Source: an uncultured Gammaproteobacteria bacterium (lineage in GTDB: Bacteria > Pseudomonadota > Gammaproteobacteria > UBA9214). From it: a DNA stretch of 64,000 nucleotides. The stretch lies in the NCBI GenBank assembly GCA_942491995.1, contig CALOCX010000003.1, forward strand, positions 139,710 through 203,709, given 5' to 3'. Both the position numbers and the translations under genes were made by a program. Of the stretch, positions 495 to 51,545 are shown in pieces. The stretch's first letter is position 1. Every line of letters begins with the position of its first letter. The notes under the pieces are model-generated. The model was not told the DNA's origin. It was given only the letters and a program-made list of their open reading frames with translations, and ran no database searches.

Positions 495-526
495 AACATC
501 GCGGCGAGGACGCCGCTTGTACAAGT
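495..526. repeat. REP-like palindromic element, reverse orientation, GAGGAC-loop variant
   Basis: AACATCGCGGCGAGGACGCCGCTTGTACAA: stem GCGGCG/CGCCGC with 4-nt loop. Same family as 4197-4218 and 21503-21528. Confidence 0.75.
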
Positions 527-537
527 GCAGTCAGATA

Positions 538-563
538 TTGCAGGAGCACTTCGCAAGCGTGAT
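538..563. repeat. REP-like element, forward orientation, degenerate variant
   Basis: TTGCAGGAGCACTTCGCAAGCGTGAT, closely matching the degenerate copy at 51478-51503 (reverse complement GCAGGAGTGCTTCGCAAACGCGAT). Forms an inverted pair with 495-526. Confidence 0.6.
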
Positions 564-813
564 CAGCATATCGGCATCATTTTCTGATCCCCGGGTCGCC
601 AGATCCGTCATCCTGACCTCGGTGCCCCGGGCAGCGGAATTTCCGGGAAACCAGGCGGCGAAATCAGGTACATGCAAGTTGTTCTACTCTCTGCAGATGT
701 GGTAGAAGTGCGGAAACACAATATCCTAATGACTGCTTGATATCTTATTGGGCACTGCGTGCGCTCGCTAGCGCGCAGTGGTTTGCTGAACGAAACGCTG
801 GCCGGGACAGGGA

Positions 814-49488: not shown

Positions 49489-50358
49489 CTATCCGTAGCG
49501 GATGGCACCCATCCGTCCGTGCTGATAATCCTGAATGGCCTGATCGATCTCCTGCCGGGTATTCATGACGAACGGACCGTGCTGCACCACCGGCTCCCCC
49601 AGCGGCACACCACCCAGCAGCAGCAACTGCGTGGTTGCCGAGGCACTCGCCGGCACCGACAGGTTGACACGATCGCCCTGGCCAAGCACGCCCATCTCGC
49701 CGTCCGCCAGGGGCTTGCCATTAGAGACCAGCTCGCCGGAAAAGACATACAGCAGGGCATTGCTGTCCGCTGCCAGCGGTTGATCGACGTTTGCGCCAGG
49801 TTGCAGCATCCAGTGCTGATAGACAATCGGGGTGTGCGTATCGATGCGTGCGCTGACACCCAGTGCCTCGCCCGCAATCACGCGTACCCGCGCCAACCCG
49901 TCCTCGCTGACGGCTTCAGGGATTTGACTGGCAGCAACTTCCTGATAGCGCGGCTCGGTCATCTTCAACCGCGACGGCAGATTGACCCATATCTGGAAAC
50001 CGTGTACACGTCCGCCCTCTTCCATGATGCGTGCCGAGGGCATTTCTGAATGCACCACGCCGCGCCCGGCAGTCATCCACTGCACGTCACCGGGTTGCAG
50101 GCGGCCGGCATGCCCGACCGAATCCCGATGTTCAAATTCACCCGCCAGCATATAGGTCACCGTTTCAAAGCCGCGATGCGGATGATCCGGTGCACCGATG
50201 GCCTCGCCCGGCGGGTAATCCACCGGTCCCATTTCATCAATCATCAGGATCGGATCTATGTAGCGCACACCCGGGGCCGGCAAGGGCCGCCGGATCTGGA
50301 AACCGCCCCCCTCTGTCTGACGACGGGCCTTGATCACTTGCTTGATGGTTCTGTTCAT
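49489..50358 (-). CDS. Pirin-family protein (bicupin)
   Basis: HPHRGFETVTYMLAGEFEHRDSVGH, 289 aa. Confidence 0.9.
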   Translation of the reverse strand: MNRTIKQVIKARRQTEGGGFQIRRPLPAPGVRYIDPILMIDEMGPVDYPPGEAIGAPDHPHRGFETVTYMLAGEFEHRDSVGHAGRLQPGDVQWMTAGRGVVHSEMPSARIMEEGGRVHGFQIWVNLPSRLKMTEPRYQEVAASQIPEAVSEDGLARVRVIAGEALGVSARIDTHTPIVYQHWMLQPGANVDQPLAADSNALLYVFSGELVSNGKPLADGEMGVLGQGDRVNLSVPASASATTQLLLLGGVPLGEPVVQHGPFVMNTRQEIDQAIQDYQHGRMGAIRYG

Positions 50359-50471
50359 GGATGACCTCGGTAATGGGTTATTGAGCAGATGGCGATAGTT
50401 TAACGTTTACAATTACAAGATAAACAGGTGTCTCATTGACACACTGTCTACTTATTGTTGACAATAACGGC

Positions 50472-51434
50472 ATGGATCTTCTCACCAGCATGCATATCTT
50501 CACCCATGTCGTCGAGGCCAATGGCTTTACGGCAGCAAGTACCCGGCTGGGTCTTTCGCGTGCGGCAGTCAGCAAGCACATCGCTCAACTCGAGACACAT
50601 CTGGGCGGCCAGTTGCTGCAGCGCACCACGCGCCGTGTCAGCCTCACGGACGTCGGACAAAGCTACTACGAGCGCTGCAAGCAGATTCTGGAGGACGTCG
50701 CCGATGCCGAATGTCTCGTCACTGGCCTCAACACGGAACCCCGGGGCAGCCTGCGCCTGAATGTTCCCATGAGCTTCGGCATTAAACAGATTGCCCCCCT
50801 GTTGAACCGACTAACCACGCAATACCCGCAACTCTCTATCGACCTGTCCCTGAGCGACCGGCTGGTTGATGTCGTTGAAGAAGGCTACGACCTGGTAATA
50901 CGCATCGCGACCCTGAAGGAATCGAACCTGATTGCACGACGACTGGCGCTCTGCCGTCACATCATTTGTGCGGCACCCGGCTACCTCGATCAACACGGCA
51001 GACCGGTGACCGCCGAAGACCTGGCACGCCACTCGTGCCTGCGTTATGCCTATACAAAAAACAGCAATGAGTGGCGCGTGTTTAAAAACAGGGTCGAACA
51101 CCGTGTACGTATCAAGGGTCCGCTGCTGGTCAATAACGGTGAGGCCTTGTGTGCAGCCGCTGAACACGGTGCCGGCATCACGCTGCTGCCAACATTCATC
51201 GCCGGTGAATCCATCCGCAATGGCAAACTGGAAGTTGTCCTGCCCGACTACGATTGCCCGGAACTTGGCATTTACGCCGTTTACTCATCCAGGCGCCACC
51301 AGTCCGCAAAGGTACGCGCACTGATTGACTTTCTTGCCAGTGAGATCAGTGACCCACCACGCTGGGACGAGGGACTTTTTACGCGTCAGCATAATCGAAA
51401 TCGCGCCGGGGACGGCGCTCCTACAACAGGATAA
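50472..51434 (+). CDS. LysR-family transcriptional regulator, divergent from the pirin gene
   Basis: MDLLTSMHIFTHVVEANGFTAASTRLGLSRAAVSKHIAQLETHLGGQLLQR (HTH). The C-terminal ~10 codons and the stop lie inside a REP element. Confidence 0.85.
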   Translation: MDLLTSMHIFTHVVEANGFTAASTRLGLSRAAVSKHIAQLETHLGGQLLQRTTRRVSLTDVGQSYYERCKQILEDVADAECLVTGLNTEPRGSLRLNVPMSFGIKQIAPLLNRLTTQYPQLSIDLSLSDRLVDVVEEGYDLVIRIATLKESNLIARRLALCRHIICAAPGYLDQHGRPVTAEDLARHSCLRYAYTKNSNEWRVFKNRVEHRVRIKGPLLVNNGEALCAAAEHGAGITLLPTFIAGESIRNGKLEVVLPDYDCPELGIYAVYSSRRHQSAKVRALIDFLASEISDPPRWDEGLFTRQHNRNRAGDGAPTTG

Positions 51435-51545
51435 CCGCCTTGGTGCAGATCGAATCCGCGATACCAGCGGTTGACCCAATCGCGTTTGCGAAGCACTCCT
51501 GCGCCAAACAGACACACCTGCAGGAGCACCGTCCCCGGCGCGATT
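51398..51545. repeat. REP cluster: reverse copy, degenerate reverse copy and forward copy
   Basis: AAATCGCGCCGGGGACGGCGCTCCTACAA at 51398-51426, AATCGCGTTTGCGAAGCACTCCTGCG at 51478-51503, and TGCAGGAGCACCGTCCCCGGCGCGATT at 51519-51545. Confidence 0.85.

Follow-up and report, generated by a model that had tools for sequence, protein, structure and literature searches.

A REP and REPIN family, most probably of the RAYT-associated kind, in an uncultured sulfur-oxidiser-like gammaproteobacterium

Introduction

Few repeats are as common in proteobacterial genomes as repetitive extragenic palindromic (REP) sequences and the inverted doublets that they form (REPINs). They influence where transcripts end, how stable mRNAs are and how genomes rearrange, and short-read assemblies break at them. 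In this study, we describe a family of such repeats in a 64,000-nt stretch of an uncultured gammaproteobacterium (contig CALOCX010000003.1, positions 139,710 to 203,709; the whole stretch is hereafter called the window). A first-pass annotation made from the sequence had noticed an abundant hairpin repeat there. Our analysis indicates that the repeats are very probably REP elements and REPINs of the gammaproteobacterial kind that goes with a REP-associated tyrosine transposase (RAYT).

The closest described systems come from Pseudomonas, with published REP classes such as PF18 (GTAGGAGCGAGCyyGCTCGCGA) and PF13 (GTGGGAGCGGGCTTGCCCGCGAT) (PMC3686654). For E. coli, the RAYT protein TnpA-REP was shown to need a GTAG foot and a hairpin on single-stranded DNA, and it cuts at CT dinucleotides. 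The GTAG tetranucleotide is needed for both binding and cleavage, and any single change in it abolishes cleavage (PMC3479197). The family of the window has the same main parts, i.e. a tetranucleotide foot, a short hairpin, inverted doublets and, on other contigs, RAYT genes flanked by the identical repeat.

Results

Copy number and hairpin structure

The 27-mer AATCGCGCCGGGGACGGCGCTCCTACA was matched 13 times in the window at three mismatches or fewer, three of the matches being exact, and the number expected by chance was 0 (100 dinucleotide-preserving shuffles). The bare hairpin pattern GCGCCG-N4-CGGCGC also gave 13 window matches, against 1.0 expected; the match at 26742 lies within a gene and was rejected as a chance hit that does not belong to the family. 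A covariance model (R1) was built from 16 aligned window copies with a 6-bp stem, and the window was scanned with filters off. Sixteen copies were detected at 31-55 bits, while everything else scored about 12 bits or less. With tolerance of large insertions, R1 yielded an extra, split copy of a long form (4067-4150, 34 bits). Thus 17 R1 hits are dispersed over eight separate intergenic loci spanning 51 kb, and with two degenerate relics (538-566 and 51473-51508) the window holds 19 copies, which agrees with the first-pass estimate of about 20 per 64 kb; the coordinate blocks given there were also right to within a few bases (Table 1). At gathering score, Rfam gave zero matches in the window.

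The repeat unit is about 27-37 nt long and has the consensus 5'-G(T/C)AG-GAGCGCCG-TCCC-CGGCGCGATT-3', or more fully, on the strand that starts with the tetranucleotide, 5'-(T)G(T/C)AG-GAGC-GCCG-TCCC-CGGC-GCGATT-3'. Its parts are the G(T/C)AG tetranucleotide, the short foot GAGC and a hairpin whose 6-bp G+C stem closes a 4-nt loop, and stem and loop were found in every clear window copy. Most copies have the type 1 stem (GCGCCG/CGGCGC), and the 13 type 1 copies of the window show 91.5% pairwise identity. The variant stem pointed out in the first pass (type 2, GCGGCG/CGCCGC) proved genuine, with three window copies (Table 1), and it differs from type 1 by a compensatory swap of one base pair (C-G to G-C). 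A third, degenerate stem is common to the two relics.

Pairing of the stem was examined in 95 distinct copies, drawn both from the window and from loci that flank RAYT genes. In this alignment, which was fitted to R1 and is hence biased toward structure, 99.3% of the stem cells were paired, both sides had changed in 76 stem cells, and compensatory changes occurred in four of the six pairs. When the 3' partner was moved by 1-3 columns as a control, pairing fell to 24-72%. The stem variants are also plain in the raw sequences (GCGCCG, GCGGCG, GCCGCG, GCGACC and GCGCCT), each with its matching partner. Judged from this covariation, the hairpin is under selection. As to the foot, eight of 16 window copies carry GTAG, six GCAG and two another tetranucleotide, and G(T/C)(A/G)G is found in about 90% of the 286 copies from all retrieved loci.

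Doublets and clusters

The copies of the window occur as singlets, inverted doublets and clusters. In the REPINs at 17477-17558 and 29609-29689 the tetranucleotides are outermost and 17-18 nt lie between the arms. Their single-strand folds reach -43.4 kcal/mol (z = -13) and -36.7 kcal/mol (z = -9.2), respectively, and the overlapping type 1/type 2 doublet at 4162-4222 folds at -24 kcal/mol (z = -6.6). In cluster 21498-21646, three direct type 1 copies, spaced at 36 nt, are faced by a single type 2 copy. Among all loci, the commonest arrangement of neighbours is tail to tail (the tetranucleotide-outward strand, then its complement), often with one type 1 and one type 2 copy, and the gaps in such pairs measure about 0-4 nt or 18-24 nt.

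RAYT genes flanked by the repeat

RAYT genes bordered by the hairpin were found when the 21-mer core GGAGCGCCGTCCCCGGCGCGA was scanned in one genome per species (at least 97 loci) and metagenome contigs were scanned with a RAYT protein alignment (80 loci). In Thiohalocapsa, a 156-aa open reading frame (ORF) is bracketed by loop variants of the window hairpin. This RAYT has 7,647 homologues at E <= 1e-10, which carry PF01797 and several of which are named RayT in their source; a Pseudomonas RAYT is 63% identical to it. In the metagenome contigs, R1 finds REPs beside many RAYT genes. On L182 and L183, the RAYT P0139 has TGCAGGAGCGCCGTCCCCGGCGCGATT immediately upstream, which is the exact window 27-mer as at 17482-17508, and ATCGCGGCGGGGACGCCGCTCCTACA immediately downstream, which is the window type 2 (GCGGCG stem) except for one loop base. 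The RAYT of L145 is flanked by AATCGCGCCGGGGACGGCGCTCCCACA and type 2 copies with GTGG feet, that of L180 and L181 (P0125) shows the REP layout of L182/L183, again with GTGG feet, and the REPs flanking the RAYT of L184 (P0145) are more degenerate. It was also observed that P0145 (L184 5001-5444) reads PDRLHW where its relatives have PDHLHW, so that the HUH motif has lost its first histidine to another residue; this sequence may represent an inactivated RAYT.

The REP-flanked proteins scored 138-146 bits against the NCBIfam model NF047646 (REP_Tyr_transpos, REP-associated tyrosine transposase; cutoff 80), and the same proteins reached 20-33 bits against the IS200 model, under its cutoff of 55. 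P0139 could be aligned to E. coli TnpA-REP (PDB 4ER8) at E = 3.5e-7, with HLH over HMH and YVVANP over YIYINP. RAYTs flanked by the same or a near-identical hairpin are 55-67% identical to one another. Because identical sequence flanks RAYT genes, the association with a RAYT that defines REP elements holds for the exact 27-mer, on other contigs. The first-pass reading of a family of the REP or bacterial interspersed mosaic element (BIME) type, tied to a RAYT, is supported by the hairpin covariation, the G(T/C)AG foot, the extragenic copies, the inverted doublets and the identical 27-mer flanking RAYTs in related metagenome contigs.

Two sorts of candidates were rejected. In L070 and L031, REPs 1.3 kb apart bracket a gene, and these genes are ordinary ones and not RAYTs. 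Syntenic L186 has a gene for a 230-aa Y1_Tnp protein (3881-4573) beside a sigma-54 activator that is the ortholog of window 4721-6157; the protein is a transposase of another kind, its gene is flanked by 20-nt inverted repeats (AAAGGTGTCAGGAACCGTTT) that are unrelated to the REP family, and R1 had no hits nearby.

Relatives and synteny

The closest relative of the window, locus L093, comes from the metagenome-assembled genome (MAG) MFD03804.bin.1.259, which represents an uncultured gammaproteobacterium. Its identity with the window is 97.6% over 18832-24932 and 84% over 17094-18837, and the two REP loci of the shared stretch are kept in place. Cluster 21498-21646 is 99.6% identical, and the REPIN at 17477-17558, which lies in the 84% block, is far better conserved than its flanks. 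None of the four window proteins compared was identical to its L093 counterpart. Two further differences were seen in this comparison. In the REPIN, the arms show matched changes (GGAGCG to GGCGCG and CGCTCC to CGCGCC), a single case, for which conversion between the arms or selection favouring the long hairpin may be responsible. Near 18830, which corresponds to about 1777-1901 of L093 in reverse complement, identity jumps from 84% to 97.6%, and about 130 nt of the MAG, among them the start of a small ORF, are missing from the window, a pattern that resembles a boundary left by recombination or deletion.

L180 and L181 have the ccm operon in common with the window at about 80% nucleotide identity, and in both a RAYT (P0125; L180 786-1235, L181 2027-2476) with GTGG-type REPs lies immediately upstream of ccmA. 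At the corresponding site (8800-10200) the window has unrelated sequence, with the tail of a large repeat-domain ORF and two strong terminator-like hairpins (9873-9926). Between ccmB and ccmC, L180 carries a 430-nt insert with a degenerate REP doublet, and in the window the two genes abut. This presence-absence difference may be taken as an indirect signal of mobility. In addition, three relatives with CcmF 75-80% identical (Thiogranum longum and two uncultured ones, represented by a closed MAG genome and a 228-kb contig) gave no significant R1 hit in 66 kb of syntenic DNA, compared with 17 hits in the 64 kb of the window. The presence and absence among relatives indicate that the family was gained and lost between lineages, as has been described for REP classes in Pseudomonas and Stenotrophomonas (PMC3686654).

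Taxonomic breadth

The 21-mer core was multi-copy in many genomes, with at least 36 copies in 181 kb of sampled blocks of an Ectothiorhodospiraceae MAG, at least 24 in Thiohalocapsa and at least 16 in a Woeseiaceae MAG. It was also multi-copy in at least four Pseudoxanthomonas genomes (cultured isolates included), in Sedimenticola, in UBA9214 and in others. The multi-copy hosts span at least three gammaproteobacterial orders (Chromatiales, Woeseiales and Lysobacterales), and, among the matches listed, GTAG or GTGG stands directly before the core in all proteobacterial genomes with several copies. One copy lies on a short contig of a betaproteobacterial MAG and should be read with caution. Single matches in Streptomyces, Polyangiaceae, Solirubrobacterales, Acidimicrobiaceae and an alphaproteobacterial MAG were rejected: the GTAG foot is missing, and they fit the chance level estimated for high-GC DNA. 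A REP core with a proper GTAG foot was seen in L091 and L097, assigned to the Thermoflexales MAG H21_290 (Chloroflexota); these are more likely mis-binned gammaproteobacterial contigs than a genuine occurrence. The 21-mer core and the RAYT clade had zero matches in 2.9 million viral contigs, so there was no sign of phage carriage there.

The first pass had proposed the core as a handy taxonomic signature. This did not hold, as the 21-mer is multi-copy in at least three orders and yet missing from the syntenic DNA of nearer relatives. Since the core is common to distant orders, it is not a signature of a species or genus. In fact, the occurrence of an identical 21-nt hairpin, loop included, in three orders but not in the 66 kb of nearer relatives is the sole mildly unusual aspect of the family.

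Genomic placement

The DNA of the window is ordinary and chromosomal, from a sulfur-oxidiser-like gammaproteobacterium, and encodes the ccm operon, a DsrC-like protein, an NAD-linked NiFe hydrogenase, a V/A-type ATPase and two-component systems. The closest named relatives by CcmF are a Thiohalobacterales MAG (77%) and Thiogranum (74-76%). All eight REP loci fall in the non-coding part, about 12% of the window, and the chance of this under random placement is about 5e-8. Four loci lie between convergent genes (21498-21646, 29609-29689, 48544-48580 and 51394-51550) and three between co-directional genes (3989-4222, 17477-17558 and 43158-43194). The earlier statement that copies are intergenic or at gene 3' ends was thus right as to the intergenic position, and its second part is not true of every locus, because 492-566 lies upstream of a histidine kinase gene. 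The copy at 51394-51430 overlaps the last 12 codons of a LysR-family ORF (50436-51434). According to Pfam, the REPIN at 29609-29689 is placed between convergent ThiF-family and DsrC-like genes, and the singlet at 43158-43194 between the gene for the NiFe-hydrogenase large subunit and the gene after it, which runs in the same direction.

A T-run oriented for the upstream gene follows three copies, with hairpins at 17489-17504 (+), 29677-29662 (-) and 48568-48553 (-). The first, in copy 17477-17513, is terminator-like and located downstream of ccmH/I. On the minus strand, the copy at 29653-29689, which lies downstream of the DsrC-like gene, and the one at 48544-48580 are terminator-like too. The arrangement is suggestive of a terminator role for these three copies, and of nothing more.

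Table 1. REP copies and related features of the window; the strand is the one that reads 5'-GTAG...CGCGATT-3'.
Coordinates	Strand	Feature	Evidence
492..528	-	REP type 2 stem (GCGGCG-AGGA-CGCCGC), foot GTAC	R1 36.6 bits
538..566	+	degenerate REP relic TGCAGGAGCACTTCGCAAGCGTGAT, type 3	by eye, under R1 threshold
3955..4018	+	leader fragment of ~198-nt composite element, directly 5' of the first REP of the cluster	alignments
4019..4055	+	REP type 1 (GCGCCG-TCCC-CGGCGC), foot GTAG	R1 51 bits
4067..4150	+	long-form REP: type 1 hairpin with 46-nt loop insert	R1 34 bits; aligned with L014, L038, L046, L062; folded
4162..4198	+	REP type 1, left arm of overlapping type 1/type 2 doublet	R1 47.2 bits
4186..4222	-	REP type 2, right arm of overlapping doublet	R1 47.4 bits
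17477..17513	+	REP type 1, REPIN left arm	R1 52 bits
17522..17558	-	REP type 1, REPIN right arm	R1 51.3 bits
21498..21533	-	REP type 2, shorter loop (GCGGCG-AGA-CGCCGC)	R1 41.9 bits
21538..21574	+	REP type 1, 3 mismatches, first of three direct copies	R1 47.2 bits; repeat family D1
21576..21609	+	REP type 1, degenerate GCGCCATCCCAGGTGC	R1 31.3 bits
21610..21646	+	REP type 1, exact 27-mer	R1 54.7 bits
29609..29645	+	REP type 1, exact 27-mer, REPIN left arm	R1 51.1 bits
29653..29689	-	REP type 1, REPIN right arm	R1 49.8 bits
43158..43194	-	REP type 1 singlet, one stem mismatch	R1 52.7 bits
48544..48580	-	REP type 1 singlet	R1 49.3 bits
51394..51430	-	REP type 1, exact 27-mer	R1 48.8 bits
51473..51508	-	degenerate REP relic, type 3	R1 12.2 bits, E = 0.56
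51514..51550	+	REP type 1, foot GCAG, one stem mismatch	R1 49.2 bits

Long-form and composite elements, relics and other repeats

The loop insert of the long-form REP is conserved and holds a nested hairpin, CCTACAGGGATGTAGG, which was also seen free-standing in L180 (2841-2856). The long form occurs as well in L014 (528-610), L022, L038 (1293-1376), L046 (4849-4930) and L062 (3290-3373), and its outer stem covaries across the insert, in GCGCCG or GCGGCG versions. The cluster at 3955-4222 as a whole is a truncated, internally triplicated copy of a composite element of about 198 nt. In other genomes this element is intact and multi-copy, with 17-nt terminal inverted repeats (TTAACCCRATNATTGCA), a leader of about 125 nt and then a type 1/type 2 REP doublet (L096 4222-4419, L072 2674-2872, L089 985-1183, L065 6620-6817 and L046 4709-4951; also L023, L054 and L017). 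The terminal inverted repeats were not present in the window, and Rfam at gathering score gave zero matches for the element in L096. The composite may be a REP doublet riding inside a miniature inverted-repeat transposable element (MITE) with terminal inverted repeats, or the reverse.

The relic at 538-566 forms a head-to-head pair with copy 492-528 and resembles copy 51473-51508; the same variant was found in L007/L008.

Two repeats outside the family were noticed. A 35-nt repeat, TGTGTTCTCTGTGTCYCCGTGGTGAATAGTTAC, unrelated to the REPs, is found in three intergenic regions near the hydrogenase cluster (38091-38134 (+), 43748-43789 (+) and 46410-46444 (-)); it has zero Rfam matches and is missing from all retrieved loci. 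An 88-nt direct repeat, 75% identical, lies at 6337-6424 and 6808-6895 and takes in the first codons of two small adjacent ORFs together with the region upstream of each; these ORFs are probably tandem paralogues encoding small membrane proteins.

Discussion

Our results are best explained by a REP and REPIN family moved by a RAYT. By analogy with E. coli TnpA-REP, a single-copy tyrosine transposase of the HUH/Y1 type would recognise the folded hairpin and the 5' tetranucleotide on single-stranded DNA, and would cleave and rejoin the strand, copying doublets into new intergenic sites. Copies would persist once inserted, and some are probably used by the host, e.g. the three with a T-run, which look like terminators for the gene upstream. 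On this model the genome of the window would carry a cognate RAYT, transposition would be ongoing and the terminator-like copies may function as such; the first-pass claim of a RAYT elsewhere in the genome, in the form given there, is not supported by the 64 kb covered.

Several observations weigh against this explanation. With the Thiohalocapsa RAYT, the L145 RAYT and an E. coli YafM sequence as queries, tblastn found no RAYT in the 64-kb window (best E not under 0.5). The window has no RAYT upstream of ccmA, unlike L180/L181, and the RAYT of L180/L181 belongs to the GTGG-REP lineage and not to the GTAG/GCAG lineage of the window. Both loci shared with L093 have not moved, and therefore there is no evidence of very recent movement. 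Finally, six window copies have GCAG instead of GTAG, an objection that is countered by the GCAG copy directly flanking the P0139 RAYT. The lack of a RAYT in the window, also at ccmA, and the unchanged positions in L093, together with the degenerate copies at 538-566, 21576-21609 and 51473-51508, would also suit orphan REPs, i.e. copies whose RAYT has since been lost by the lineage and which are now immobile relics, retained only where they serve the host, as terminators or by stabilising mRNA, or else still awaiting decay. In Pseudomonas, cases in which the RAYT was lost and the REPs stayed are on record (PMC3686654), which counts in favour of such an outcome. However, the window holds three exact 27-mers, its 13 type 1 copies are still highly similar, and the arms of both clean REPINs are near-perfect. 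Moreover, the RAYT linked to ccmA is of the GTGG-REP lineage, whereas the GTAG/GCAG copies of the window are like the flanks of P0139-type genes. The window makes up only 1-2% of a genome, so the absence of a single-copy gene there means little. We therefore regard the loss of the RAYT as unlikely.

The other explanations have less to recommend them than to oppose them in the data. A conventional MITE family, with terminal inverted repeats and moved by a DDE transposase rather than a RAYT, would account for the cluster at 3955-4222, which derives from the composite element with its 17-nt inverted repeats and the REP doublet inside. But those inverted repeats are not in the window, the window copies have neither inverted repeats nor target-site duplications at their boundaries, the other seven of the eight loci share nothing beyond the 27-37 nt unit and have unrelated flanks, and the unit is a hairpin with a GTAG foot rather than a pair of transposase-binding ends and itself flanks RAYT genes; we consider a MITE family very improbable. 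It is just as hard to believe that the copies are host regulatory hairpins without mobile origin, such as intrinsic terminators or a protein-binding palindrome, though three copies have a correctly oriented T-run and half of the loci lie between convergent genes. Independent terminators would not be expected as near-identical 27-mers at unrelated loci, in both orientations and in tandem and inverted doublets. Most copies are without a T-run, the conserved foot GTAG plays no part in termination, and the same sequence flanks RAYT genes and is present or absent between relatives. A degenerate array resembling clustered regularly interspaced short palindromic repeats (CRISPR), or another regularly spaced array, could be suspected only from the three direct copies with 36-nt spacing at 21538-21646. 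The putative spacers there are only about 9 nt long, against about 30 nt in CRISPR arrays, no more than three direct copies stand together, other loci have one or two copies, both orientations occur, and no cas genes were among the neighbours checked with Pfam, so that the anatomy refutes this explanation.

It is generally held that REPIN-RAYT systems are inherited strictly vertically. The identical hairpin in distant hosts would be accounted for if either the RAYT-REPIN system moves horizontally between such hosts or the REP hairpin stays frozen over very deep divergence, a proposal that we put forward tentatively and with some doubt. Horizontal transfer, if true, would contradict the strictly vertical view, and the broad, patchy distribution offers a small test case for it. 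In practical terms, the core is not lineage-specific, and it is unfit as a taxonomic marker or as the sole signal for binning.

Compared with known systems, the family has some features in common with the subterminal hairpins of IS200/IS605 elements, in which a Y1/HUH enzyme recognises a hairpin and a 5' guide tetranucleotide on single-stranded DNA. Those insertion sequences, however, enclose a transposase of their own between two unlike ends, and it is the whole element that is multi-copy. An IS200/IS605 element was rejected here, as the window copies have no ORF and the associated proteins score under the IS200 cutoff and over the RAYT cutoff. With the REP/BIME elements of E. coli, the family shares the GTAG at the 5' foot of the hairpin and two REP types that alternate in orientation within clusters, like y and z; the HUH motif and catalytic tyrosine of TnpA-REP (RayT/YafM; PDB 4ER8; PMC3479197) align with the RAYT studied here. 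The REPs of E. coli are longer, imperfect and bulged hairpins, unlike the perfect 6-bp stem of the window, and the similarity between the proteins is remote (E = 3.5e-7). BIME linkers with sites for integration host factor or gyrase were not identified here, no test having been aimed at them. The REPs of Stenotrophomonas (SMAG; PMC3686654) also have GT(A/G)G followed by a perfect G+C palindrome, and they occur in Lysobacterales, the order to which the core-carrying Pseudoxanthomonas belongs. There the palindrome abuts the tetranucleotide and has 8-9 pairs, whereas a GAGC spacer and a 6-bp stem are found here, and the window stem-loop is not listed among the published Stenotrophomonas classes (PMC3686654).

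The best match is to the REPs of fluorescent pseudomonads, which have GT(A/G)G, GAGC, a G+C stem, a short loop, the second half of the stem and GCGAT; PF18 may be set beside the window sequence GTAGGAGCGCCGTCCCCGGCGCGAT. They are likewise extragenic, mostly inverted doublets, with several stem variants per genome and a REP-flanked RAYT (PMC3116915, PMC3686654). The window family is different from the GI REPIN of SBW25, which consists of two 16-mers 71 nt apart start to start (PMC3116915), in that the doublet spacers here are short (about 0-4 or 18-24 nt). The stem-loop GCGCCG-TCCC-CGGCGC is not among the 22 published Pseudomonas classes (PMC3686654), the stem sequences were not found in print in the searchable literature, and the host is an uncultured sulfur oxidiser resembling Thiogranum/Thiohalobacterales rather than a pseudomonad. 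Since the architecture matches that of the published Pseudomonas classes, the family represents a new sequence class of a well-known kind, and as a new REP class for an uncultured sulfur-oxidising lineage it should be useful for annotation and for the assembly and binning of MAGs.

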